This document shows, piece after piece, positions 3,606-57,284 of a stretch of 64,000 nt of DNA. The stretch lies in assembly GCA_034669905.1 (NCBI GenBank), contig JAXMOL010000022.1, positions 32,001 through 96,000 on the forward strand. The letters run 5' to 3'. The notes beneath the pieces are model-generated. The model did not search any database. It saw nothing but the letters and a program-made list of their open reading frames with translations, and had not been told where the DNA came from. The stretch is from Candidatus Hydrogenedentota bacterium (GTDB lineage Bacteria > Hydrogenedentota > Hydrogenedentia > Hydrogenedentales > JAEUWI01). A program made the translations under genes and the position numbers. Positions within the stretch are counted from its first letter, which is position 1, and each line of letters opens with the position of its first letter.

Positions 3606-4381
3606 ACGCCACGCGTACCCGAACAGAATCCCTATGTAAAGAGATGAAACATCTGGGCCTCTCCCCGGGAGACTCCGTCCTCGTGCACAGCTCCTTGAGT
3701 GCCATGGGCTGGATAGAAGGCGGGGCGTCCACCGTGGTTGAAGCCCTGCTCATGGCGGTAGCGCCTGGGGGCACCATACTCTTCCCCACCCTGACGGGGA
3801 AGGCTTCCGATAGTCCACAACACCGTCCCTGCTGTGACCACCGTCAACGGACTACCTGGTGTGGCGCCATCCCCTGCGCGGCACTTCAGCACCCGGCATG
3901 CCACCGAAGCATCCACCCCACCCACGCCGTTGCCGCAATAGGTCCCAACGCGGCGCAGTATACAACGGGCCATCCGTCCGCCTTGAGTCCCTGTGGAACG
4001 GGCAGTCCATACACGCGACTGGCCGAGGCCGGTGGTCACATCCTGCTGCTGGGGGTCAACCACAATGCGAACACAACCTTTCATACCGCCGAAGAACTCG
4101 TCGATGCCCCCTATGTCGCCTATCCAGGCCGTTATCCGTGCCCCGTCATCGATTTACAGGGGGACTGCCACGAGATCATGACTCCCATTCATCGGTGGAA
4201 CCGCCCCCGTTGTTTTGAGGATTGGCACGAACGACTCGTCGCGGCCGGCATCGTCCGGGAAGGCCTCATCGCGGCAGCTTCTTGCCGGCTGATGGGGGCG
4301 CAGGCCCTCATCCAATGGCTCGTGGCGCAGCTTCAACACGACCCCCGAGCCCTGCTTGCGCCCGGCACACCCTATCCCTGA
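3602..4381 (+). CDS. AAC(3)/YokD-family N-acetyltransferase
   Basis: LGLSPGDSVLVHSSLSAMGWIEGG, RSIHPTHAVAAIG, SPY, ILLLGVNHNANTTFHTAEE; ATG at 3602 overlaps upstream TGA (ATGA). Confidence 0.85.
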   Translation: MNATRTRTESLCKEMKHLGLSPGDSVLVHSSLSAMGWIEGGASTVVEALLMAVAPGGTILFPTLTGKASDSPQHRPCCDHRQRTTWCGAIPCAALQHPACHRSIHPTHAVAAIGPNAAQYTTGHPSALSPCGTGSPYTRLAEAGGHILLLGVNHNANTTFHTAEELVDAPYVAYPGRYPCPVIDLQGDCHEIMTPIHRWNRPRCFEDWHERLVAAGIVREGLIAAASCRLMGAQALIQWLVAQLQHDPRALLAPGTPYP

Positions 4382-43478: not shown

Positions 43479-45998
43479 ATGATGAACGAACCCCGCATCA
43501 CCGATGCCGCCGAAGAGTCGGTCACGATCCCGGAGCCCGCACCAGAACGTGAGCCCCTTCCGGTTCCAGAGCGCGCGCGGGTCGTGATTGTAGGGGGAGG
43601 CATCGTGGGGTGCAGCGTGGCCTACCATTTGGGACACCTGGGGTGGCGTGATGTGGTGGTCCTGGAGCAAAGCGCGCTGGCCGGTGGTACGACCTGGCAT
43701 GCCGCCGGAATGGTCGGCCAATTACGTACTTCGAACAGCCTCACGAAGATTAACAAATACAGCGTTCAATTGTACCAACAACTGGAGGCGGAAACCGGGG
43801 TTTCGACCGGCTGGAAGGAAGTGGGCAGCCTTATCGTGGCGCAAAGCGAGGCGCGCATGACTCAGTTGCGGCGCACGGCAGCGATGGCCCAGCGTTTTGG
43901 CGTAGAAGCCCATCTCATTTCTCCCCGGGAATCACAGGACGCCTTTCCCTTGTTGCGCTCCGACGATCTCCTGGCTGGGGTATGGTTGCCCCACGACGGC
44001 AAGGTCAATCCGGAAGCCACGGCGAAAGCCCTGGCGCAGGGTGCGCGCAATCAGGGCGCCCTTATCAAAGAAAACACCCGGGTTACGGGACTTCGCGTCT
44101 CAGACGGTCGCGTCACGGGGGTGGATACGGCACAAGGCCCCATTGAAGCGGAGTATGTGGTTTTGTGCGGCGGTATGTGGACCCGCGAATTGGCCCTTAA
44201 AGCCGGGGTCACCGTCCCCCTCTATCCCGTGGAACATCACTACGTGGTGAGTGCGCCGCTCGAGGGCGCCTACGATGAACTTCCCTGCGGAAGGGACCCG
44301 GATGCCCAGATATACTTCCGCGGCGAAGGGGACGCCATCATGCTGGGGGCCTTCCAGTCCCGCTCCACCACGTGGGATCCATCTCCTCTCCCCCATCCTT
44401 TCTCCTTTTCTCTGTTGGAGGCGGATTGGGAGAAGTTTTCCCAGCCAATGACGGCGGGCAAGCACCGCATCCCGGCCCTGGCGGAAAGCGAGTTCCCCAA
44501 GTTTGTCAACGGTCCCGAGAGCTTCACGCCAGACAACAATTTCATCCTCGGGGAAACCCCGGAAGTGCAAGGGCTTTTCGTGGGCGCAGGCTTCAATTCC
44601 GTGGGTATTGCCAGCGCGGGGGGCGCCGGAAAATACCTGGCCGAATGGATCGTTGCGGGTGAGGCCCCCCTTGATCTCTGGTCGGTGGATATTCGGCGCT
44701 TCATGCCCTACCACAACAACCGAAATTACTTACGTGAACGGGTAACCGAAGTGCTCGGGCTTCACTATCAGATGGCGTGGCCCAACCGGGAGCCCGAGAC
44801 CGCCCGCAACCTGCGCCAGAGCCCGCTCCACGAGCGACTGAAGGCACAGGGGGCATGCTTTGGCGTCAAGATGGGCCTGGAACGCCCCAACTGGTTCGCC
44901 CCCGCGGGCGTGCTCCCACAAAACGACTACACCTTTGGAAAGCCCGCGTGGTTATCCCACAGCGGCGCCGAGCATCGGGCAACCCGGGAAAACGTGGCCC
45001 TCTTCGACCAAACCTCCTTCTCCAAGTACCTGCTCGAAGGTCCCGATGCCCTGACGCTGTTACAGCGCTTATGCGGCGCCAATATCGACGTGGAGCCCGG
45101 AAGGGCGGTCTATACCGGGATGTTTAACGTACGGGGCGGTTTCGAGAGCGACCTTACCGTCCTTCCGCTGGCCCAGGACCGTTTCTATATCATCTCAGCA
45201 TCGGCCCAGACACGCCGCGACTACCACTGGATTCGCCGCAGAATGACCCAGAAAACCCATGCCGTCCTCACCGATGTCACCACCGGCTACGGAGTCCTGG
45301 GGGTAATGGGCCCGAACAGCCGAAAGCTATTGGAAAGGGTGAGCAACGCGGACTTTTCCAATGAGGCCTTTCCCCTGAACACCGCCCAGGAAATCGCCGT
45401 GGGCATGGCGACTGCCCGTGCCCTGCGCATGAGCTATGTGGGCGAACTCGGCTGGGAGCTACACCTGCCGTTGGATCAGATGGCCGCGGCCTATGACGCC
45501 CTGTGGGAAGCCGGCCAGCCTCTGAACGTCTGTAATGCCGGTCATTACGCCATCAATTCGTTGCGATTGGAAAAGGGCTATCGGGCCTGGGGCGCCGACA
45601 TCACCCCCGATGACACCCCCTTTGAAGCCGATCTCGCCTTTGCCGTTTCGTGGGAAAAGACGACTCCCTTCATCGGACACGAGGCCCTGTTGGAGAAGTG
45701 GGAAAACCTTCCACGAAAACAGCTGGTATCGCTGGTGCTGGACGACCCGGAAATCATGTTGTGGGGCAATGAACCGATCGCCCGTGATGGTGTGGAGGTG
45801 GGGCACACGACTTCGGCAGCCTATGGGCACACCCTCGGGGGGGCAGTGGCCCTGGGATACATCCACCACAACGACGGGATTACTCCCGAGTTTCTCGAGG
45901 AAGGGAAATACAGCATTCTATGCGATGGTCAGACGTGCAGCGCCCGGCTATATCGCACCCCGCCCTACGATCCCGGCCGAAAACGTCTTCGAATGTAA
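43479..45998 (+). CDS. FAD-dependent oxidoreductase, dimethylglycine/sarcosine dehydrogenase (GcvT-fused) family
   Basis: VIVGGGIVG, GTTWHAAG, NGPESFTPD, SYVGELGWEL, LRLEKGYRAWG; RBS AGGAG. Confidence 0.92.
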   Translation: MMNEPRITDAAEESVTIPEPAPEREPLPVPERARVVIVGGGIVGCSVAYHLGHLGWRDVVVLEQSALAGGTTWHAAGMVGQLRTSNSLTKINKYSVQLYQQLEAETGVSTGWKEVGSLIVAQSEARMTQLRRTAAMAQRFGVEAHLISPRESQDAFPLLRSDDLLAGVWLPHDGKVNPEATAKALAQGARNQGALIKENTRVTGLRVSDGRVTGVDTAQGPIEAEYVVLCGGMWTRELALKAGVTVPLYPVEHHYVVSAPLEGAYDELPCGRDPDAQIYFRGEGDAIMLGAFQSRSTTWDPSPLPHPFSFSLLEADWEKFSQPMTAGKHRIPALAESEFPKFVNGPESFTPDNNFILGETPEVQGLFVGAGFNSVGIASAGGAGKYLAEWIVAGEAPLDLWSVDIRRFMPYHNNRNYLRERVTEVLGLHYQMAWPNREPETARNLRQSPLHERLKAQGACFGVKMGLERPNWFAPAGVLPQNDYTFGKPAWLSHSGAEHRATRENVALFDQTSFSKYLLEGPDALTLLQRLCGANIDVEPGRAVYTGMFNVRGGFESDLTVLPLAQDRFYIISASAQTRRDYHWIRRRMTQKTHAVLTDVTTGYGVLGVMGPNSRKLLERVSNADFSNEAFPLNTAQEIAVGMATARALRMSYVGELGWELHLPLDQMAAAYDALWEAGQPLNVCNAGHYAINSLRLEKGYRAWGADITPDDTPFEADLAFAVSWEKTTPFIGHEALLEKWENLPRKQLVSLVLDDPEIMLWGNEPIARDGVEVGHTTSAAYGHTLGGAVALGYIHHNDGITPEFLEEGKYSILCDGQTCSARLYRTPPYDPGRKRLRM

Positions 45999-46123
45999 CA
46001 TACACATTACGTATACCCCGCAGAAGCACAGTATCTTTCGCGCTTCGTCACACAAATGTTACAGGTCGCCGGGCACAATTCCTACAGCGGTTGCGCTAGT
46101 CAAATCACTGTGAGGAATGTACG

Positions 46124-46324
46124 ATGAAAAAAGAGTTTGGGAAAAAGAAATCCTTTGCCGCAACGGATGCCAATCCTATCCTGGCGACCAACACCTGCGA
46201 CATCACCTTAACCCCCGAGGGGCTCGCCTATCTGGGTGTCCTCCCACACCAACCGATAGGGACGAAGCCCCCTTCTCCCCGGCCGGCCATGAAGACGGCA
46301 CGGCTCATCAAGCGGGCCATGTAG
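46124..46324 (+). CDS. Small hypothetical protein (66 aa)
   Basis: ORF with GAGGA RBS in otherwise empty intergenic space. Confidence 0.4.
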   Translation: MKKEFGKKKSFAATDANPILATNTCDITLTPEGLAYLGVLPHQPIGTKPPSPRPAMKTARLIKRAM

Positions 46325-46503
46325 TGGTGCGACTACTGCCGCTGTCCCGGTAAGCGAGATTTCGTCGGACCTGCCCCTTCGAAATACCGCGTCCGCCGGG
46401 CACGGGGGATGGTGTGAATGTCACGGTAGTGAGTTCCCCATCCCCCCGTTTTGCTTTCCACGTGGCCACCTCCCGACCGTTGACTCCTGCAGGCAACATC
46501 CCC

Positions 46504-47043
46504 CTATCGAATGGCCTTGCTCATATCCACCATACTCGTATCCACATTGTTCAAAACGGTCCCGCGCAGGACGGTGCTTTTCAAGATGGCCACGGGCGTT
46601 TTTCCGAAGTATTTCATCCAGAGACGTGCATCGGTCATATCGGACGCACTGAGATCGGCTTTGGAAAGATCAGCCCCACTTAAATTGGCCCCGATCAACT
46701 TGGCCTTGCTGAGGTCTGCGCCGCGCAGATTTACCGAGTAGAGATTGCACCCCGAAAAATCCGCCCCCATTAACGTGGCGCCACTGAGGATAGAGCGACT
46801 CAGATTGGCGCCCGCCACCCGTGCGTCGGTGAGATCGGCCAGCGAGAAATTGGCGTTCGCCAATTCGGCCTTCTCCAGCCCCGCCCCCGTCAAATCGACA
46901 TCCCGAAAATTCACTCCTTGCAATTGCTTGTTACACAAATCGATTCCCCGGAGATCGGGCCGGGCCTCTTTGTTTTCTTCACGCCACCTGTTCCACGCCT
47001 TCACACCGTCTTCCAACAGCGATTCGTACACGCTATTCGCCAT
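46504..47043 (-). CDS. Pentapeptide-repeat protein
   Basis: GVKAWNRWRE..PDL then tandem A(D/N)LxG repeats. Confidence 0.9.
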   Translation of the reverse strand: MANSVYESLLEDGVKAWNRWREENKEARPDLRGIDLCNKQLQGVNFRDVDLTGAGLEKAELANANFSLADLTDARVAGANLSRSILSGATLMGADFSGCNLYSVNLRGADLSKAKLIGANLSGADLSKADLSASDMTDARLWMKYFGKTPVAILKSTVLRGTVLNNVDTSMVDMSKAIR

Positions 47044-47081
47044 TCAAACTACCCTCTCAATCAATCGCCTGGTGGAGCAAC

Positions 47082-47801
47082 CTATCCCGACTCGCCCAAC
47101 GTTAAGGTCAACAAACTGAAATCCATGCCCCGCATCGGCGCGCCACCATTGTGAAAGGTAACTCCGCCGTAGCGGGCACCATCCACCGCCACATGGGTAT
47201 GCCCGAAATACACGTTCTCTACCCCTTCCGGCTCGCCGTGTCCAATATCATGAATGTAGGCGTGCACCCGTTCGAGCGTACGGCGTGGCGGGTGGGCCAG
47301 CCGTGAAATGGCCACATGGGCACGAGCGCGGAAGGCAGCATCGTACAAGCGGTTCTTCACGGGGCCCTGTTTCTTGTGGTGCATCCATGCCGACCGAAAG
47401 GCCTCCAGCTGGGCCTGATTCATTTTTCGGGTCGCCACATCGCCATGGATAAACAGGGTATTCTCGATGCGCAAGTAGTAGGGATGCCAACTGAGGTTTT
47501 CCGTTTCTTCGGCCAGCTCCGAAAGGGCATCAATAAAGCCCTGGACGTGATCATGGTTTCCAAGGTTCACATGGAACTGACACGTGGGATAGCGCCCCGC
47601 CAATGCACGCAGATAGGCAATCGCGGCGTCAATCGTCGCTTCCACACTGGGAAGGGTGGTCCATTTGAAGTCGACCGTGTCTCCATTGAAGACAAAGAGG
47701 TCCGCCGAGGCGGCGGCTGATTCGATGTCTTCCAGATGCTCTTCCCAATGGGAGCGCTTGCAGAACATATGCAGGTCGGATACGACACAGACCGTTTTCA
47801 T
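47082..47801 (-). CDS. Calcineurin-like metallophosphoesterase (LpxH-like)
   Basis: SDLH, NGD, GNHD, HGD, GHTH motifs. Confidence 0.88.
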   Translation of the reverse strand: MKTVCVVSDLHMFCKRSHWEEHLEDIESAAASADLFVFNGDTVDFKWTTLPSVEATIDAAIAYLRALAGRYPTCQFHVNLGNHDHVQGFIDALSELAEETENLSWHPYYLRIENTLFIHGDVATRKMNQAQLEAFRSAWMHHKKQGPVKNRLYDAAFRARAHVAISRLAHPPRRTLERVHAYIHDIGHGEPEGVENVYFGHTHVAVDGARYGGVTFHNGGAPMRGMDFSLLTLTLGESG

Positions 47802-47951
47802 CGGATTCCCTTCCTGGCACTTCGACTACTCAAACTATCGTCCAGTGTAGCATAGGGTCAGCGCTTCCATCGTCTGCCTGCCCGCCCATGACGATGCACG
47901 GACGCCGACCACTGGGCTATACTGCCCGTGCTAACTACTGAGGGGAATCTT

Positions 47952-50246
47952 ATGAAACCAACCACAATCAGTGCAATAACGCAAAAATGGCGGCAGCTCG
48001 CGCTACTCACTATTCTGCTCCTTTCCGGAGGCTGCCCTACCACAACGCCGGACCCGGATCCCGATCCAGACCCCGATCCCGACCCGACCCCCACCACGGC
48101 ACCCTACGCCTTTCAATTGCCCCAGACTCTGGACAGTGACGGCGGCCCCGAAGCCATCGCCACAGGACGGCTCAATGGCGATGCCTATCCGGATATTGTC
48201 TCTGCCAATCGCACGGCCGACTCGGTCATGGTCTGGCTTTCTACCGGACCCGACACCTTTGCAAGTCCCCGGCGCCTGTTGCTCAACGGCGTCGAGCCTC
48301 GGGGCATCACGATCAACAGCCGCTACAGCGACAACACGAAAGACATTCTGGTAGCCAACGCGGGAAGCCACAACGTTACGCGTTTTCGACTGGACGCCAA
48401 CGGCGATCACGCCCCGGCGGAGCTCACCGCCCTCGCCGATGGGGCCACGCCCGTGGACTTGGTCACGGCTGATTTTAACGGCGATGGTGTGGGTGACGTT
48501 GCGACGGCCAATGAAGCACTCAATACGGTCTCCGTGTTGCTCGGCATGGCAGATGGCATGTTCTCTCCACCCGTCGATATTGCCACCAGTGCGGGCCCGC
48601 GCTCGATCTGTGCGGGAGACTTTGATGGCGACGGGGATGTCGACTTAGCCACAGCGAACCGCAATGCCGATTCCCTGACCATCCTGGAGAACGATGGAAC
48701 GGGTGGCTTCGCAACGACCTTCGACGAAGCCACGGGCTCGGTACCTCGAGCTGTCGTTACGGTAGACGTTGACGGAGACGGCCGGGACGACCTTATCGCC
48801 ACGAGCCCGTCGAATAACGCCATCGCACTCCACCGCGCCAACAGCCAGGGTGGCTTCAATGCTGCCGTCTTCCTGACGGTTGATGGCAATCCAACGCGCC
48901 TGGCCGTGGGAGACTACACGGGTGACGGAAACGACGACCTGCTGGCGGTGACCTTTGCCAGTGACACGGCCTCTATCGCCTCCGGAAAGCTCGTCTGTCT
49001 TGCCGGGGACGGGCAAGGGAACTTTGAGTACCACGGCGACTTCCAGGTGGCACCCGGCGGGGTGGCCCTGGTCGCCGACGACATGGACCGAGACGGCAAC
49101 ACCGATCTGGTCTTTTCGAACACTGCCGAAGACTACGTGGGCACCGCCCTGGGCGACGGCGAAAGTCTCGCGACGGAGCGGCGCTTTCCGGTGGGCACCC
49201 GGCCACGCATGGTGGTCCCGGGTGACTTTAACCGGGATGGTTCCGTAGACCTCCTCGTCGCCAATCTGGACAGCAATGACGTGACCTTCCTCCCCGGCGA
49301 CGGCAAGGGCGGATTTGATACGGGCACGAGCATTCCGGCGGGTGGCAGCGCGCGGGCGATTGCCACCGCCCACCTGAACGGCGACAGCAATCTCGACTTT
49401 GTGGTGACCAACCTCAACGAAAGCCGGGTGGCCGTCTTTCTGGGGCAAGGCAATGGCACCTTTCAGAGCCCCGCATACCTGGACGTGCGGGATGAGAGCA
49501 GTACCCGTTCGGCGGAACCCCGCTCCCTGGCACTGGTGGATGTAAACGGCGACACGCATATCGATCTAATCGTGGGCAACGCGAATCGGGACTCCGTCGC
49601 GGTCCTCCTCGGTAGTGGCACGGGCACCTTCGCCGATCCGGTGGAGTACGACGTGGGCAACTTTCCCCTATCGGTGCAGCTCGCCGACTTTGATGAAAAC
49701 GGCACGCTGGACCTGGTGGTCGCCAATGGCGTGGACGCCGACGGAGAGGGCACCCAGACATCGTCTCTACACCTGCTGCTGGGTGCGGGCGACGGTACCT
49801 TTGACGCGGAAGATTCCCTGGGCTATCTGGTGAATGCCGCGCCGGGTGCGCTGATCGCGAAAGACCTCACGCGGGATGGCCATGTGGATGTGGCCACGTC
49901 GCACAGCACCCTGGGAAGCATTCAACTCACCAATGGACGGGGCGACGGCCGCTTTGGCGGGGGTAGTGTCTTTGCCATGGGCACCAACCCCAACAGCATC
50001 ACCACGGCCGACCTCGATAAGGATGGCGCCCTCGACCTGGTGGCCACCAACACGGATGGTCATGTATCCATCCGGCTCTACGATCGGCTCCTTGGTTTCG
50101 GCAGCCGCACGGCAATCCCCATCGGCTCGGGGTCTGGTCCGATAGAGGTGCTGGTGCATGACATCAATGGCGACGGCAATCTGGATCTCATCACGCCCAA
50201 TCGCACGAGCAATGACGTTTCCGTTGTCTTAGGCGCATCCCCCTGA
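47952..50246 (+). CDS. FG-GAP/VCBS-repeat lipoprotein
   Basis: Lipobox LSGGC, (PD)n linker at about 48047-48090, more than 10 DxNGDGxxDL repeats; RBS AGGGG before ATG 47952. Confidence 0.9.
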   Translation: MKPTTISAITQKWRQLALLTILLLSGGCPTTTPDPDPDPDPDPDPTPTTAPYAFQLPQTLDSDGGPEAIATGRLNGDAYPDIVSANRTADSVMVWLSTGPDTFASPRRLLLNGVEPRGITINSRYSDNTKDILVANAGSHNVTRFRLDANGDHAPAELTALADGATPVDLVTADFNGDGVGDVATANEALNTVSVLLGMADGMFSPPVDIATSAGPRSICAGDFDGDGDVDLATANRNADSLTILENDGTGGFATTFDEATGSVPRAVVTVDVDGDGRDDLIATSPSNNAIALHRANSQGGFNAAVFLTVDGNPTRLAVGDYTGDGNDDLLAVTFASDTASIASGKLVCLAGDGQGNFEYHGDFQVAPGGVALVADDMDRDGNTDLVFSNTAEDYVGTALGDGESLATERRFPVGTRPRMVVPGDFNRDGSVDLLVANLDSNDVTFLPGDGKGGFDTGTSIPAGGSARAIATAHLNGDSNLDFVVTNLNESRVAVFLGQGNGTFQSPAYLDVRDESSTRSAEPRSLALVDVNGDTHIDLIVGNANRDSVAVLLGSGTGTFADPVEYDVGNFPLSVQLADFDENGTLDLVVANGVDADGEGTQTSSLHLLLGAGDGTFDAEDSLGYLVNAAPGALIAKDLTRDGHVDVATSHSTLGSIQLTNGRGDGRFGGGSVFAMGTNPNSITTADLDKDGALDLVATNTDGHVSIRLYDRLLGFGSRTAIPIGSGSGPIEVLVHDINGDGNLDLITPNRTSNDVSVVLGASP

Positions 50247-50286
50247 GCTGTACCAAAATAGCGCGGCATTTGCCGCACATTTTCCT

Positions 50287-50314
50287 TTGCAATTTCTGAG
50301 GTCGGTGGTATACT
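50287..50314 (+). promoter_or_regulatory. Near-consensus extended -10 sigma70 promoter with no downstream protein gene
   Basis: TTGCAA-16bp-TATACT with TGG immediately before the -10. Confidence 0.7.
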
Positions 50315-50320
50315 GAATTT

Positions 50321-50683
50321 GGACCCGGGATAGGGATTCCAAGACGGCCAGCGAGCCACCCGGCAAGGGGCCAGTAAGGAGCAATTACTGGTGCTGGCAA
50401 GGTGGGAATCTGATAACCCCCGGGCCCCGACAATGCGGTAAAAGCCGCATCGCGGACCGACATATGGGGTCTGGCCGGAAACCAGGCTGTCGGCTTCGCA
50501 GCGGATTTCGCCGCTTTGGATAACGGTGGAAATAGTGCTCTAGTGCATACGTTGTGCGCATGTCCTCAAGACAGGACGGCAGAGGCCACAATACGAGCCC
50601 AGACCCAAGAGCGCAGATAACGTAACTATTTCCACCCCTAGAAATAGCGGAAGTTGCGTAACGAGAACGCTTTGTAAGGGTCC
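50321..50683 (+). ncRNA. Candidate large structured ncRNA of unknown class (~365 nt)
   Basis: Starts about 7 nt after the -10; ends pair (GGACCC/GGGTCC); more than 12 helices including a perfect 12-bp GGTGGAAATAGT/ACTATTTCCACC; no credible ORF. Confidence 0.75.
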
Positions 50684-50814
50684 CAAACAGGATCGAAAAG
50701 GGCCACGTGAAGTGCCCATACCCGAACAGCGAAGCCTTTTCGACGCCACTTCCGCTTTCGCTTGTCTACCCCCTCCTCCTACCCCCTGCACACGGCCATC
50801 TATACCTGCTTTTT

Positions 50815-51897
50815 TCAGTATGGTGGCAAGAGCCGCCTGAACCCATGCCCCAAGATGACGAGGGCAAAAAATACGTTTCGCACTACCACGCCCACCCCGT
50901 TCATCGAGACAGGCCGCGTCACTTCCCTCCGTCGGGCCGCACGTGCAGCCGTCAAGCCAACATGCCGAATCCAGTTCAATCCACAGGGCCACTCGATTAG
51001 CGCTTCCCGCCAGGCGACCGGTATACCCTCCTCACCAACACGAGCCCCGATGATGGCGCCGACGATGGCCGCCGAGGTATCCGTGTCACCACCACATCGA
51101 ATCACCTCCTCGACGGCCGTGGCATAGTCTTCGGGGTGACGCAACCAGGCATGCAACACAATGGGCACAGTATGATAGCTGTAGCCAGTAATACCTTCTT
51201 CCAACCCCATCGCCCCGGCAGCGAAATCCCCCGTTGATTCGCCGGCGGTCAGACTGCGCCTCACTCGGCCCAACAGGTCGTAGAACTCTTCACCGTCTGC
51301 CCAAAGCTCTGCCTCACAAGCGGCGAAGAAGTCATCGGCCTCCAAGGCGACGTCTTTTCGACTCGACATACACGCCGCCAGCGCCACCGCCTGTGCGGCA
51401 TATTCCGCCTTGGGGTCCCGATGGGTCAGCATGCTGGAGCAACGGACCAATGCACGGCGACGCGTAGCGTCCCGTTCATAGAGTACGCCAAGGATTGGAC
51501 TCCGCATCGACGGTCCATTGCCCGCCGAGAAGACCCCACTTCGGGAAGGCCCGAATCCCAGCCAAAGCTTCAGGATGCTCTTCAGTGTGGCCAACCCTAT
51601 TCCCGCGGGCATACGGAGCAACCAGAAGCGGAGTCGCCAGGACAGATTTCTCGTGAACTGGGCCGGCTCACCACCAGAGGCCGCCACGGCCTGGGCCACC
51701 ATGCAGGCGTGTTCCGTATCATCCGATACCATGCCGCGCCCGAAGAACAACCTGGGACGATCCAGCGTGGGTACCCAACGGGCCTGACGACGACGGGAAA
51801 TACCCTCCCAAGGCAGCCCAAGGGCGTCGCCCACCGCCATACCAATGAGCGCACCGACGACAGCTTCTTCCGGCGTTACCGAGTTTGCTTCAGCCAA
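50815..51897 (-). CDS. ADP-ribosylglycohydrolase (DraG/ARH) family protein
   Basis: GMAVGDALG, SDDTEH, SAGNGPSMR, LTH, GGDTDTSAAIVGAI. Confidence 0.92.
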   Translation of the reverse strand: MAEANSVTPEEAVVGALIGMAVGDALGLPWEGISRRRQARWVPTLDRPRLFFGRGMVSDDTEHACMVAQAVAASGGEPAQFTRNLSWRLRFWLLRMPAGIGLATLKSILKLWLGFGPSRSGVFSAGNGPSMRSPILGVLYERDATRRRALVRCSSMLTHRDPKAEYAAQAVALAACMSSRKDVALEADDFFAACEAELWADGEEFYDLLGRVRRSLTAGESTGDFAAGAMGLEEGITGYSYHTVPIVLHAWLRHPEDYATAVEEVIRCGGDTDTSAAIVGAIIGARVGEEGIPVAWREALIEWPCGLNWIRHVGLTAARAARRREVTRPVSMNGVGVVVRNVFFALVILGHGFRRLLPPY

Positions 51898-51946
51898 CCT
51901 GTTTCCTCACACACTGCGTTCGCTCCAAGGCGTTGGAAGAAGCTTC

Positions 51947-54718
51947 TCACGGCTTCCCGACGACCAGTGGCACCAACTCAACCGGCCCCAGCAGCCCCGA
52001 ATCCATCACGGGCCAGTTCGACGCATCAAAGGGTTTGTATTGGATATTGACGATGTTGGTGTCGTGAAATATCTTCCATTCCACCTTGCGACGGTCCATG
52101 TCGGCAATGCGATTGGCGGCGAGATTGGTGACCTCGATGGAGAGGGTGTTACCGGTGGACTTCAGAGGGCCCTCGATGAGCAACTCGAAGGGAATGGCCC
52201 ACGCGGTGCCAAGGTCTTCCCCATTTAAGGTAACCCGTGCGCTTTCGCGAACCGTACCCAGAGACAGACGCCAGGCCGCTGCCACCCCATCGGGCGCATC
52301 GAAGGTGGTTTCGTAACGGGCCGTTCCCCCAAAACGTTTCGCTTCCGCGTCGGGGGCTTCGGTCCAGGAAGCCAGCGCTTCGAGGGTGTACGGCGCTGGC
52401 AAGACGGGGCCCCCTTCGGTAAAGGTAACCTGCCAGGGCCCGTCCACACGCACCGGCTCCCCGTCCTGCTTCCAGTAGGGCCACGCTGGCCCTTCGACCA
52501 CTCGCTCGGTATAGGTGCGGAGAAAACAGGACTCGCCCGGTTTCAAGGCAATCCGAACCTGGGTTTGTCGGTCTGTACCTTGTTCCGTCTCGGCAAGGCC
52601 ACTGCGCGCATACAGGGCATCCAGCCACACGACGCTTTGGGCAGGCGTGGCGAGGTCCCACAGGGCGTCGACGGGCTCAGCGGTGAGATTGGAAATGAAG
52701 TACAGGTATCCCTCGTCGTGCTTCCGGCGAATCATGGAGAGTCCGGACGTGGCGAGGCTTTCGGGCACGATACCCACGTCATTCAGAGCCGCCAGAAGGG
52801 GATACTGGGGATAGACCTTCCCGCGCCCCATGGGCACTGCAGGCGCCCCCCCACTGGCCGACACGTGCCCTTCCCAGATTCGATGGAGCCCCCGCATACG
52901 GTCACGGCGCTTTTCCAACGAAGCGAATCCGGGCACGTCTCGGGGCACGGGTCCCAGGAAGACGATGGGCGCCCCGAAGCGGGCCATGGTAAAGAGACGC
53001 TCAAGGGTGTTGTCGGGAATCCGGGGCGTGTCGGGCACCACGATCACCCGGTAGGTATTCTCGCCCAGTCGAATGCCGCCTGTATTTACCTCGGCCTGAT
53101 TCAGCAGCGCGTCTGAAATATAATCAAAGGCATAGCCCCCTTCGGTGAGGGCCTTCGCGGTCTCGTAAAAGGGCGTGTCAATGAGCCAGTCATCGATATT
53201 GTGAACGGTCAACAGCTTGCGCAAACCTTCCGCGTCGTGCCAGACATCGTGAAGGGGAAAATAGAGCAGTACGTCGTTTGCGGGGGCACTCCCCTGGAGC
53301 AGGGCCTGACTCCGCCCGATATAGCCGTTCAGTTCATGAAAATCATCCCACCAGGTGTTGGTCGGACCGAAGTGTACGGAGGCATAAAAAAGCCAACCGG
53401 GCCACGCCGCATCGTCCGGCGAATAGGGCGTACCATGATAGAACATATGATTGATACCGGCCGCCAACAGTTGGTCCACCTCTGGCTTGGCCTGCGAGAG
53501 GGCCACCTGGAAATGCTCGCCGAGCCAGGTGCAGGTTTCGGAAGACACCTTTCGCTTGCCGGTGAGATGGGCCGCCGAAGAGGCAAATTTCAGCATGAGC
53601 AAATCGGGGGGCTCGTTGTCGAAGCTCTCGTCCTTCCGCAGGCCGGGAATGGGAAATCCGGATGGACCGAAGATTTCCGTCTCTGGAATGTCTACCGTGG
53701 CGTAAAGGTCGATCAGGTTCCCCGGTGAGCCGTGGGCCTGGTTGCGCGTAATCATGCCGTGCTCGTGGGTCCAGTTGGTCCACTGCGCGGTGAAGGCCTC
53801 CCGCACCTGGGCGGCCAGGGTCTCGCGGTAGTCCGACTTCACCCGGGCGATTTGCTCCGGGTCCCCTTTGCCCGTCATTTCGGGCAGGTGGTGTCGAAGG
53901 TCGTAGCCATGTTGGGCCTCAAAATTCTCCCAGAGGTCAGGGGCCCAGTCTCCGCTGTATTCAAAGGAATCGTGAAAATGGGCGCGCAGAGGCAAGCCGT
54001 CATAATCCGCCATGGCCTCGGAAAAATGCTCGAGGTAGGCCCCCAACGCGGCTTTGGAATAAGTATTCACCGTCAGCCCGGCACCGCCCGGTGCAGGTCG
54101 TTTTACTTTCCGACCGGAAAAACGATAGTACGCCACGTAGTACGTAGCGGCTCCCGGGACCAATCGGCTTACCGCTCCGTCGACCACCGTGGCCGTTAGA
54201 TCATGAACCGCACCCTCTTCCCCGTAGGCGATGAAGGACAACAGCACACCGTCTTCCGGGATTCCGAGTGAATCGCCCGTGGCCTTTACGTCCACCGTGA
54301 CGATGGTGACTTTCATGTCGGCCTTATCGAGGGTGACTGTCGGACCACCAAAGGGCCAGCCCGTGCCGGTGGGCATGTCGACGCCGAGGCCAAGTCGTTG
54401 GGCTTCCCGGGTGGTATGGGCGAGCATGGCCTTCCAGTCATCGCTCAGGTAGTCAATGTGTCGGTCTTCCTGTCCCTTGATACCATAGATGGGCGTAATT
54501 TCAACGCCACCCAGCCCCACCTCGGCAAACTCTTCGAGACTTCGGGTGAGGTTCGCCTCATCCACGGCACTGCCGAGCCACCACCACCGGGTCCAGGGCT
54601 TCGCCTCGCCCGTCACTTCGGGAAACTCGAAGGGACCGACGGCCATGGCGGTGGACAGGGCTGCGAACACAATTGTCACCATGCCGTAGTGGCCAATTCG
54701 GTGGAAAAACATTTTCAT
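51947..54718 (-). CDS. GH106-family glycoside hydrolase (alpha-L-rhamnosidase-like), exported
   Basis: KPWTRWWWLGSAVD, GLGGVEITPIYG, GTGWPFGGP, DSFE, RNQAHG, DIPETE, SSET, C-terminal SGLLGPV; RBS AAGGAG before ATG 54718. Confidence 0.88.
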   Translation of the reverse strand: MKMFFHRIGHYGMVTIVFAALSTAMAVGPFEFPEVTGEAKPWTRWWWLGSAVDEANLTRSLEEFAEVGLGGVEITPIYGIKGQEDRHIDYLSDDWKAMLAHTTREAQRLGLGVDMPTGTGWPFGGPTVTLDKADMKVTIVTVDVKATGDSLGIPEDGVLLSFIAYGEEGAVHDLTATVVDGAVSRLVPGAATYYVAYYRFSGRKVKRPAPGGAGLTVNTYSKAALGAYLEHFSEAMADYDGLPLRAHFHDSFEYSGDWAPDLWENFEAQHGYDLRHHLPEMTGKGDPEQIARVKSDYRETLAAQVREAFTAQWTNWTHEHGMITRNQAHGSPGNLIDLYATVDIPETEIFGPSGFPIPGLRKDESFDNEPPDLLMLKFASSAAHLTGKRKVSSETCTWLGEHFQVALSQAKPEVDQLLAAGINHMFYHGTPYSPDDAAWPGWLFYASVHFGPTNTWWDDFHELNGYIGRSQALLQGSAPANDVLLYFPLHDVWHDAEGLRKLLTVHNIDDWLIDTPFYETAKALTEGGYAFDYISDALLNQAEVNTGGIRLGENTYRVIVVPDTPRIPDNTLERLFTMARFGAPIVFLGPVPRDVPGFASLEKRRDRMRGLHRIWEGHVSASGGAPAVPMGRGKVYPQYPLLAALNDVGIVPESLATSGLSMIRRKHDEGYLYFISNLTAEPVDALWDLATPAQSVVWLDALYARSGLAETEQGTDRQTQVRIALKPGESCFLRTYTERVVEGPAWPYWKQDGEPVRVDGPWQVTFTEGGPVLPAPYTLEALASWTEAPDAEAKRFGGTARYETTFDAPDGVAAAWRLSLGTVRESARVTLNGEDLGTAWAIPFELLIEGPLKSTGNTLSIEVTNLAANRIADMDRRKVEWKIFHDTNIVNIQYKPFDASNWPVMDSGLLGPVELVPLVVGKP

Positions 54719-54890
54719 GTTGGAAAACTCCTTGCTGCAGGGGGGTAATCTCATGTTGGGCACCATTGTACCTGCATCGCGTTTCACATAAAACCCTCCC
54801 TATCGTTGGGTGCAGTCCCCGGCCGCGCCCGTGTTATAATGAAGTTCTAAACAGCAGTCAGGCTTATCCCCATCCCCACAGGTATTCGAA

Positions 54891-55724
54891 ATGTCCACAC
54901 AGACCATTCCCTCGCAGGTACTCGAAAAGGAAGCACAGCTCCAGGCGCTTCTGGCGGGGTACGGAACACTCGCTATCGCCTATTCCGGCGGTGTGGATTC
55001 TGCCTATCTGTCCTGTATCGCCCATGAGATGCTGGGCGATATGGCCTGTCTCATCCTGGCGGACTCCCCGAGTATTCCCCGGGCCGAAGTGCGCGAGGCC
55101 TGTGATCTGGCGTGGTCCCGGGGGTGGAATTTGACGGTGGTGGAGACCACTGAGTTTGAGAACGAGGACTTCCTGAAGAACGATGGCACCCGATGTTATT
55201 ACTGCAAGACCGAGCTCTTCACCCAGATGGATGCCTACGCCCGGGAGCACGGCATCTCCGTGCTGGCCTATGGCGAAATCACGGAAGACCAACTGGACCC
55301 CACCCGACTGGGCGCGAAAGCCGCCCGGGAACACGAAGTGGTGGCCCCCCTGGCCCTCGCCGGGCTGGAGAAAGAAGAAATCCGCCGACTGAGCCGGGTG
55401 CGCGAACTGCCCACCTGGAACAAGGCCTCCTTTGCCTGTCTCTCCTCCCGCTTCCCCACAGGAACCCGGGTCGTGCCCGAAGAAGTCCGTAAGGTCGAGG
55501 CCGCCGAGGAAGTATTGAAGGCGCTGGGCTTCCACCAATACCGCGCCCGGCACCACGACGCGGTCTGCCGCGTCGAAATTGACCCGGTGGACATTCCCAA
55601 GATGCTGGATCCGGCGCTTCGACAGGCCGTGGTGGACGGCATCACCCGGGCGGGATATCGCTACGTCACCCTCGATCTCGCGGGCTACCGCACTGGCAGC
55701 ACGGCGGACATGCCTGCGACCTAG
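54891..55724 (+). CDS. larE: ATP-dependent sacrificial sulfur transferase LarE
   Basis: AYSGGVDSAYL PP-loop, RCYYCK, WNKASFACLSSRFP, YVTLDLAGYRTGS. Confidence 0.9.
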   Translation: MSTQTIPSQVLEKEAQLQALLAGYGTLAIAYSGGVDSAYLSCIAHEMLGDMACLILADSPSIPRAEVREACDLAWSRGWNLTVVETTEFENEDFLKNDGTRCYYCKTELFTQMDAYAREHGISVLAYGEITEDQLDPTRLGAKAAREHEVVAPLALAGLEKEEIRRLSRVRELPTWNKASFACLSSRFPTGTRVVPEEVRKVEAAEEVLKALGFHQYRARHHDAVCRVEIDPVDIPKMLDPALRQAVVDGITRAGYRYVTLDLAGYRTGSTADMPAT

Positions 55725-55776
55725 GCAATCGCCCCCGCCTTGTCAGCCTGGGTTCGACCACACACGTTTCTTTAGC

Positions 55777-56037
55777 ATGGACCTCAAGAACCCCGTGTGG
55801 ATGTATGCTAAAGCAGGCCTTTTCCTCCTTATCGGCCTGGCAAGTTTTCTGCTCGTCTGGATGCGCGCGCCCTACCTTTCCACAGCAATACTCCTGGCCT
55901 TGATGTGCTGGGCCTCCGCGCGGGCGTATTACTTTGCTTTCTATGTCGTCACCCACTACATCGACGACACCTATCGCTTCGCAGGACTCTTTGATTTTCT
56001 TCGCTATGTCATAGCGCGCCGGAAGTCTCGCAGATAA
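55777..56037 (+). CDS. Small membrane protein
   Basis: MDLKNPVWMYAKAGLFLLIG..RAYYFAFYVVTHYIDDTYRFAGL; two hydrophobic helices. Confidence 0.7.
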   Translation: MDLKNPVWMYAKAGLFLLIGLASFLLVWMRAPYLSTAILLALMCWASARAYYFAFYVVTHYIDDTYRFAGLFDFLRYVIARRKSRR

Positions 56038-56342: not shown

Positions 56343-57071
56343 TTACTTGTCGGTAAACTCGAAGGCGGATGCGACGAAGAGCTTACCTTCGACTTCGCCA
56401 GAGACTTCGGCCGTGCGGGGCTTCTTGCAGAGTCCGGAAGCGTGGGCATTCACGGGCGTTCCACCCATGAGGTAGGCCGTGCCCGCCACTTTAACGGCGG
56501 TCTTGCAGCCTCTTACGCCCGCAATCTTGTAGGTGCAGGTGGCGCAACCCGCTTCGACGGTCGCCTTGGAAAGCTTCACTTCTTCCTTGTGATCGGGACC
56601 GTGATCTTCCTGCAGATGGGCCAAGGCGTCTTTACCCACGTAGAGGGCGCGGAAGGTCGCCACGCCTTCTTTCAGGCTGGCCACATTGGCGAGATCGGTG
56701 GTCTGCTTCGCCTTCATGGCGGAAACCATGATGCCGTGCAGGGCCTTGAGCTTCTCTTCGTACTTTTCGGCATCGGCCTTGATGCGCTGGGCGAGGAAAT
56801 AATAGGTGACGATATCGGTCAGCTCGTCGGCATGGGTTTCTTTGTTGTTGACCCAGCGGACCAGTTGGTTGTAGTTCTTGTCGCCCGCCGCCGAAAGCTC
56901 GTTGATCTGGTTCATCGACTTTTCAATAGTCGTAATATGCTCTTCCATCATGGTGAAGCGGGTTTCGTCACCATAGATACCGCAAGGAACCTGGCAGTGT
57001 GCCGATGCGAGTTGCGCGGGCACCATGGCCAGGGCCAACAGGGCGAGGCTAGCGGTGAATTTGATCTTCAT
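56343..57071 (-). CDS. sodN: Nickel superoxide dismutase with signal peptide and extra C-terminal Cys/His domain
   Basis: Signal peptide ending ASA then Ni-hook HCQVPCGIY; NQLVRWVNNKETHA, YYFLAQRIK; tail EAGCATCTY..GCKTAVK..HASGLCK; RBS AGGAG. Confidence 0.9.
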   Translation of the reverse strand: MKIKFTASLALLALAMVPAQLASAHCQVPCGIYGDETRFTMMEEHITTIEKSMNQINELSAAGDKNYNQLVRWVNNKETHADELTDIVTYYFLAQRIKADAEKYEEKLKALHGIMVSAMKAKQTTDLANVASLKEGVATFRALYVGKDALAHLQEDHGPDHKEEVKLSKATVEAGCATCTYKIAGVRGCKTAVKVAGTAYLMGGTPVNAHASGLCKKPRTAEVSGEVEGKLFVASAFEFTDK

Positions 57072-57284
57072 GATGTGTGTTCTCCTGCATAGGTTGGATT
57101 GTGTGGGATACGGCGTCAGGGCGGTAACTGGAAGCCCGCCCCATTCAGCGCACGCCGTATGGCCGCAACATGTAAATGGAATCTCCACTCTACAATTCAG
57201 CAAGCGGTGGAAACAAGCTCACCTGCCGCGAAAAATTTCCCTAACCATATTAAAACAAGGCGCAAATGACCGCTTTAGGTGACT

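Follow-up and report, generated by a model that had tools for sequence, protein, structure and literature searches.

Large, conserved, stand-alone RNAs are rare in bacteria, and those with known roles, such as RNase P, tmRNA, SRP and 6S RNAs, are central ones; OLE, ROOL, GOLLD and raiA are large bacterial RNAs without a settled role. Passages of one report (PMC12286853) describe the OLE, ROOL and GOLLD oligomers as stabilised by kissing loops, and ROOL and GOLLD as prophage or phage encoded. The window analysed here, a stretch of 64,000 nt from a Hydrogenedentota genome, contains a locus that is almost certainly an RNA gene. It belongs to a real, previously undescribed family of structured RNAs, is ~435 nt long in the window, and contains a duplicated core of ~110 nt. 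It has a promoter, a conserved and covarying fold, a single locus per genome and neighbours that change between genomes. Like OLE, ROOL, GOLLD and the raiA motif, it is stand-alone, highly paired, multi-domain and of unsettled function, and it is probably abundant. However, neither the window RNA nor 19 homolog loci matched the covariance models of OLE, ROOL, GOLLD, raiA or HEARO, and the RNA differs from the first four in having no supported pseudoknot, in the duplication of its ~110-nt unit, and in being reducible to one such unit. In contrast to ROOL and GOLLD, it was absent from the viral contigs searched with two patterns (0 matches) and from the annotated phages searched, with plasmids likewise giving 0 matches. 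The novelty is that of a family without a catalogued counterpart, and is claimed for the family rather than for any mechanism. A literature search mainly outside subscription journals found no publications on an RNA motif of Hydrogenedentota; the main text of PMC11109978 did not mention the phylum, and neither did the abstract, outline and passages of 10.64898/2026.10.21.760802, the supplements and cluster database of which could hold the locus.

The RNA lies in a gap with no convincing genes, between an FG-GAP repeat gene of 772 aa upstream (47928-50246, + strand) and an ADP-ribosylglycohydrolase gene on its 3' side (50815-51897, - strand), confirming the convergent arrangement in the original prediction. 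The predicted extended -10 promoter (TTGCAA-16-TATACT, 50287-50314) is also present, as a sigma-70-type promoter on the + strand (50286..50314) with its -35 box at 50287-92, the extended TG at 50306-07 and the -10 box at 50309-14. Both boxes are invariant in 8/8 sequences from the genus, and homologs of all families with a match are preceded by the same promoter type. This is the ordinary housekeeping type of the RNA's own genome, with a similar pattern (TTGC, 16 nt and an extended -10) at 19 other sites, which could be used to seek further RNA genes there. A terminator-like hairpin (50261..50278, strand not given) lies in the interval between the FG-GAP gene and the promoter, although it is not significant alone (the consensus scan found 2 against 1.5 expected).

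The RNA probably starts 6-7 nt past the -10 box, giving a predicted transcript of ~435 nt (50321..50755, + strand) from the combination of fold, homologs and RNA-library contigs spanning 50323-50756. The original estimate of ~365 nt, ending at 50683, was too short: conservation and pairing continue past that position to 50755, with the peak of conservation in the alignments beyond the earlier end. A closing stem (50647-54/50748-55) delimits a domain of 109 nt, and after it comes a T-rich tail (50756..50766, + strand), which homolog tails and contig ends mark as the probable 3' end. This tail is weak in the window RNA, with longer T runs in many homologs. The original prediction had overlooked both the internal duplication and the 3' domain, where the molecule is most conserved. 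Short ORFs of 16-34 aa within the RNA are unlikely to be coding, because indels separate close homologs.

The prediction that the region folds better than shuffled sequence held for the stretch originally proposed (50315-50690, z -3.68, 0/100 shuffles equal), and the extended stretch had a z of -4.87 (50318-50765, 0/100 shuffles equal). Across eight full-length sequences from the genus, a revised structure of 80 pairs was 96.7% paired, with 13/80 pairs changed on both sides and 0/500 shuffles as high, although this structure was derived from the very sequences on which it was scored, and these kin are not independent. In the 3' domain, compared over 34 domains, 27 pairs were 93.7% paired, relative to 87.0% in shuffles (0/500 as high), and 16 pairs had changed on both sides; slid controls were 38-45% paired. 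The promoter, homologs and covariation support the stand-alone, promoter-driven, multi-junction noncoding RNA that had been proposed, while altering much of its detail. All 22 sequence strings printed in that proposal occur where it had placed them, but its GGACCC/GGGTCC end stem and two pseudoknots, scored jointly with the GCTCT/AGAGC stem in the eight genus sequences, were 77.1% paired, against 76.7% when shuffled, with 206/500 shuffles as high. The domain 1 stems were retained (GATTCC/GGAATC in 47/48 cells, GCCAGC/GCTGGC in 41/48), as were GTCTGG/CCAGGC in domain 2 (43/48) and the 12-bp stem of domain 3 (50525/50636, 87/96 cells). The other domain 2 stems, CCGACA/TGTCGG (30/48) and ATGCGG/CCGCAT (34/48), did not survive the comparison, and neither did the hairpin AGCGG/CCGCT (26/40) nor the enclosed GCTCT/AGAGC (15/40), while the site of the suggested GAAA-tetraloop stem (50638-47) is a variable linker.

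Over 62 sequences spanning the families, the strongest corrected mutual-information signals were nested pairs, with no convincing tertiary pair. Common to all families were an outer GGRAGY/RCTYCC stem, a GCGT/ACGC stem and a GTCC/GGAY hairpin stem; this retention of sequence inside helices, besides pairing, suggests recognition of the helix surface. There was no invariant unpaired core across these sequences, the junction strands were variable, and the conservation of loop sequences did not extend to f5 and took a different form in f13.

The window RNA consists of four domains in series. Domain 1 (50321..50426, + strand), delimited by the fold, is a three-stem rod with a two-hairpin junction at its end; its helices 1-3 have two-sided changes in 2/6, 2/6 and 3/6 pairs, and its sequence varies from genus to genus. 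Domain 2 (50431..50518, + strand) is a single rod, identified from the fold, covariation in helix 5, and an invariant GCGG (50435-38) matched with an invariant CCGC (50511-14), with a tip hairpin at 50469-87. The last two domains (50525-50636 and 50647-50755) are the duplicated unit of ~110 nt, a rod whose cap is a three-way junction bearing two hairpins. Domain 3, or module A (50525..50636, + strand), is the second copy of the 3' domain, supported by covariation in helices 6-9, the fold, and a match to a model built from domain 4 only (50523-50643, 20.4 bits, E 0.0012). It has outer (50525-36/50625-36) and inner (50550-59/50611-22) stems, a first hairpin at 50562-77 and a second at 50584-99, the loop of which is degenerate in the window genome. 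Domain 4, or module B (50647..50755, + strand), is the core of the family by covariation and conservation, and the sole domain of the shortest homologs. Its stems are 50647-54/50748-55, 50656-59/50743-46, 50662-64/50740-42 and 50669-74/50730-35, with hairpin 1 at 50679-94 and hairpin 2 at 50700-17, which has the loop CACGTGAAGT. A candidate pairing of the 5' end with the GGGCCA string near 50700-05 was dropped, this string being the 5' arm of hairpin 2.

The duplication extends beyond the window: an inner-junction profile matched the 5' part of 15/38 longer RNAs, relative to 0/760 shuffles (at least 8 bits), although the module A of the window, with its decayed second loop, is not among these 15. 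RNA starts were assigned at 54 loci as the best promoter-like site within 560 nt; after L057 and L068 were dropped, as their calls looked wrong, RNA lengths at the remaining 52 loci were 105-538 nt and folding z scores were -1.6 to -11.8 (15 shuffles each). The f5 homologs consist of the 3' domain alone (105-114 nt) and the f13 homologs of this domain plus one short hairpin (142-154 nt), with three or four domains in series in the other families, forming a natural architectural series of one to four similar-sized units that includes the duplication of the 3' domain. Intact 3' domains are 96-116 nt long, with helix and linker lengths nearly fixed. The hairpin-2 motif is intact in at least one module in 33/38 long homologs (both modules in 13, only B in 16, only A in 4, and neither in 5). 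As module A is intact while module B has decayed in L044, L058 and L065, the 3' module behaves as an interchangeable unit.

A BLAST search found matches in 14/41 genomes, including the RNA's own. Three successive covariance models, each built from the hits of the preceding step with E cut-offs of 0.001, 0.01 and 0.05, matched 45, 48 and 56 of 109 Hydrogenedentota genomes, all at least 85% complete. When 39 genomes were re-scanned less strictly, 7 matches emerged, comprising 2 new ones with a promoter (G079 and G028), 1 already known and 4 that were rejected (L176-L179, with no promoter, and coding or terminator-like). Two of these, L177 (1501-1542) and L178 (1501-1559), are terminator-like hairpins right after a stop codon, with arms resembling the closing stem of the RNA, hinting at a possible relationship between that stem and a terminator shape common in Hydrogenedentota. 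The union of RNA-bearing genomes is 59/109 (the 56, plus G013 and G021 from the first model, and G079). The search for homologs and covariation upheld the family and its revised helices, but not the original end stem and pseudoknots. The eight weakest new matches to the third model, when fetched, all had a promoter directly 5' of the stem (8/8), an independent check on the homologs. There is one RNA locus per genome, the window's own genome included; where a genome gave a second match, this was to module A or to the other strand of the same hairpin, with the exception of a 39-nt match in G056.

By family, the third model (R3) matched 11/13 genomes of f1, 4/5 of f10, 9/17 of f11, 9/10 of f13, 2/3 of f8, 15/43 of f5 and 0/10 of f3. 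The RNA was undetected by the models and the lax re-scan in 50/109 genomes, including all 10 of f3, where it may be dispensable or have diverged beyond the models, with incomplete assemblies another possible cause. Beyond Hydrogenedentota, the searches run did not bear out the original impression that other bacteria carry similar motifs. A pattern scan of 185,579 species, each represented by one genome, found 21 loci, of which 15 scored at least 41 bits with the model (11 labelled Hydrogenedentota, -ales or -es, 3 without lineage, and 1 labelled Nitrospirales), whereas the 6 labelled as other phyla scored at most 18 bits. Model R3 matched 0/121 and 0/121 genomes in two control phyla (those of G114 and G113), and gave 1 weak 40-nt match in 5 further single genomes, while a pattern search of metagenomes found 61 loci, only 5 of which held this RNA. 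As far as searched, therefore, the family is confined to Hydrogenedentota, with the exact patterns being insensitive and the neighbouring phyla lying outside the model search.

Part of the stretch was present in 24 sequencing runs (14 runs being recorded as RNA), with half of its words in none. Four RNA runs from four studies were compared with 49300-51800 at 80% likeness: among the pieces listed, 20/24 fell within 50323-50756, and 4 were short matches in the repeat gene. In one RNA run, 7 contigs tiled 50323-50739 at 90-99% identity, the first beginning at 50323; pieces from three studies stopped at 50744, and one extended to 50756. These pieces are contigs from relatives, which show neither strand nor level and possibly include DNA. 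In the nearest relative the RNA is 87-97% conserved, compared with 74-82% for the flanking gene, and given this difference in conservation the silence of the flanking genes proves little. Nevertheless, the stops at the promoter edge (itself conserved) and at the closing stem hint, with weak to moderate force, at a discrete transcript.

Comparison with catalogued RNAs agreed with the original suggestion of an unnamed class: scanning 45000-56000 against Rfam 15 gave 0 matches at E<=1, relaxing the cut-off to E<=10 in further scans gave only noise, and the 3 matches across 19 homolog loci included 0 on the RNA. Separately, L078, from a Hydrogenedentota-group genome, carries two Acido-Lenti-1 RNA motifs above the gathering score in opposite orientation (3695-3740 and 3842-3887). 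The prediction that the RNA is not RNase P, tmRNA, 6S or SRP RNA was also upheld. The models for RNase P RNA (RF00010), 6S RNA (RF00013) and SRP RNA (RF00169/RF01854) did not match the RNA, and for tmRNA (RF00023) ARAGORN found 0 genes in the window; the genome's own copies are on contig C48 (RNase P RNA, 323 bits), C19 (6S RNA, 59 bits), C2 (a small SRP RNA, 60.6 bits) and, for tmRNA, another contig (192 bits). A paralog of the large SRP RNA was dropped as a candidate, the genome's own SRP RNA being of the small type. The SRP S domain shares with the window RNA a layout of a rod with a three-way junction and two-hairpin head, but the window RNA has no helix-8 internal loops of the kind in the large bacterial and archaeal S domain. 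Bacterial Y RNAs of the YrlA type are also similar, being ~110-nt units with paired ends, a bulged rod, a branched head and a U-rich tail, whereas the window RNA has neither a T-loop consensus nor an Rfam match. This candidate too was dropped, with Ro60/TROVE in 3/109 genomes, 0/13 other f1 genomes and none in the RNA's own genome; the TROVE-domain genes of L069-L073 are in three f5 genomes. No model supported a resemblance to the SRP Alu domain, 5S rRNA, a permuted tRNA elbow, an anticodon loop, or the TPP and c-di-GMP aptamers.

In its repeated elements and proposed trans action, the window RNA resembles CsrB, RsmY and RsmZ, and an ACAGGA string occurs in both of its modules. It differs in that the conserved GGA is in a stem, where at 50574 as at 50690 both Gs have an unpaired probability of at most 0.01; only 1/13 GGA motifs in the window RNA is fully unpaired, and that in a non-conserved loop, while homologs replace the paired GGA with compensation. 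CsrA was found in 89/109 genomes, comprising 1/17 from f11 and 88/92 others, yet f11 has the RNA in 9/17 genomes, and f3 has CsrA in 9/10 and the RNA in 0/10. A CsrB/RsmY/RsmZ-type RNA was consequently dropped, as GGA is paired and the presence of CsrA does not track that of the RNA. Hfq was not found in the RNA's own genome, which is 96% complete.

The genomic neighbourhood preserves the stand-alone reading. The nearest downstream ORF is convergent with the RNA at 17/39 loci, and scanning 59 of the 79 flanking ORFs at 40 loci (short, overlapping and the window's own ORFs being excluded) found no neighbour common to all families. FG-GAP repeats lie upstream of the RNA at 7 loci in three families, the other neighbours differing (a sugar transporter, Dus, PP2C, CBS, DUF6141, HSP20 and others). 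A cis-acting riboswitch was rejected on this convergence in the window and elsewhere, and on the varying families of downstream genes. These 59 ORFs included no reverse transcriptase, transposase, integrase, mobile-element endonuclease or Cas protein, one NotI-type restriction enzyme aside, and membership in a mobile or defence system, as an RNA of the intron, retron, OMEGA, bridge or CRISPR type, was discarded given the lack of adjacent enzymes, the one locus in the RNA's own genome and the absence from the phages and plasmids searched. There was no extended antisense target in the same genome, in which only two matches of 22-23 nt were found (E 0.2 and 0.8). At L050, a tRNA-like sequence lies ~400-450 nt upstream of the RNA, just 5' of the promoter region.

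As no gene depends on the RNA in cis, it probably acts in trans, and since the helices keep both their sequence and their geometry even as either module copy can decay, the ~110-nt repeated domain is most likely to be a protein-binding surface, a tentative reading to which we give slightly less than an even chance. The strong housekeeping promoter would supply an abundant, stable trans-acting RNA, each domain of which (a bulged rod, three-way junction and two short hairpins) would fold independently and bind a protein, such that the RNA may be a scaffold or decoy within a ribonucleoprotein. The single-domain form would then be the minimal unit, to which duplication would add another site, the variable 5' domains being add-ons. 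This is consistent with the three stems kept in sequence over 62 sequences, the near-fixed domain length (96-116 nt), the 33/38 long homologs with an intact hairpin-2 motif, the presence of the RNA in RNA libraries, and the lack of a fixed downstream gene or extended antisense target; it sits less easily with the loops not being conserved in the short f5 forms, non-detection in 50/109 genomes, including all 10 of f3, and the failure of Ro60 (3/109), CsrA (untracked), Hfq (not found) or any common neighbour to provide a partner. Alternatively, assembly might need RNA only, with the near-palindromic hexamer C-R-Y-G-T-G that opens the hairpin-2 loop kissing a second copy, which could join modules A and B, or molecules as dimers or larger assemblies, in the manner of OLE, ROOL and GOLLD. 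Loop position 2 is a purine in 46/47 cases and position 3 a pyrimidine in 42/47, residues that could form pairs with T5 and G4, both fixed, in another loop, while the alternative intraloop pair, between position 2 and the last, is possible in only 22/47 loops; kissing loops in ROOL, GOLLD and OLE oligomers, described in passages of PMC12286853, provide a precedent. Nevertheless, we consider such kissing rather unlikely, as the search pattern itself dictated loop positions 1 and 4-6, the kin are not independent and 1/47 looks like chance; there was no two-sided change, the commonest hexamer pairs weakly (-2.6 kcal/mol), and the motif is absent from the f5 and f13 forms. The same loop can also be read as a candidate GNRA-like GTG(N)A fold docking on a helix.

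Other readings are less probable. Several riboswitch aptamers share the layout of a three-way junction with two hairpins, and tandem domain copies occur, as they might for a small-molecule or ion aptamer that acts in trans, as sensor or sponge, and is present in tandem in the longer RNAs; but such an aptamer is improbable given the variable junction strands, where a pocket would be expected, the lack of a riboswitch model match, and the lack of a regulated gene following the RNA (convergent in the window). There is an equally slim chance that the RNA corresponds to a housekeeping RNA domain, diverged or as yet undescribed, with a gene of its own, such as the SRP helix 5-6-8 junction or an RNA polymerase-binding RNA. 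In favour of such a counterpart are the single locus, the strength of the promoter, the broad distribution among Hydrogenedentota, the small type of the genome's own SRP RNA, and a rod with a two-hairpin head like that of the SRP S domain; against it, RNase P, tmRNA, 6S and SRP RNAs are all encoded elsewhere in the genome, there is no Rfam signal to E 10, the SRP helix-8 internal loops are missing, and the RNA is undetected in f3. The promoter, T-rich 3' tail and variable 5' part would also suit a small RNA that regulates by base pairing and is protected by a structured 3' domain, yet this is very improbable for an RNA that is almost wholly paired, with no single-stranded seed conserved across families, no long complementary target in the genome, no Hfq found, and shortest forms that lack the 5' part altogether. 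Least probable is a ribozyme, despite the size and branching of the long form and the strong conservation of domain 4 within families: the 62 sequences have no invariant single-stranded core, the pseudoknots are unsupported, no ribozyme model matched, and the flanking ORFs offered no RT, mobile-element endonuclease or transposase, the NotI-type enzyme aside. The original description as "ribozyme-sized" was misleading, as one family shrinks to a single domain of 105-115 nt, with loops that are not conserved in these short forms.

The family offers a deep alignment, a minimal domain of ~110 nt open to direct synthesis and structure solution, and naturally occurring lengths of 105 to 538 nt, such that tests can address both what the RNA does and how big RNAs grow through duplication. 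It is conceivable, though unlikely, that this is a new multivalent RNA class, in which the near-palindromic loop joins tandem-duplicated junction domains, or molecules, into an RNA assembly or the core of a near-housekeeping ribonucleoprotein of Hydrogenedentota. Were this so, the one-, two- and four-domain versions would show large, ornate RNAs growing from a small unit.

Beyond the RNA gene, the same window contains a 277-aa ORF (54891-55724) that had no Pfam match at E 0.001, and which we take to resemble a LarE-type sulfur insertase, and a nickel superoxide dismutase domain fused to DUF6370 (56343-57203).
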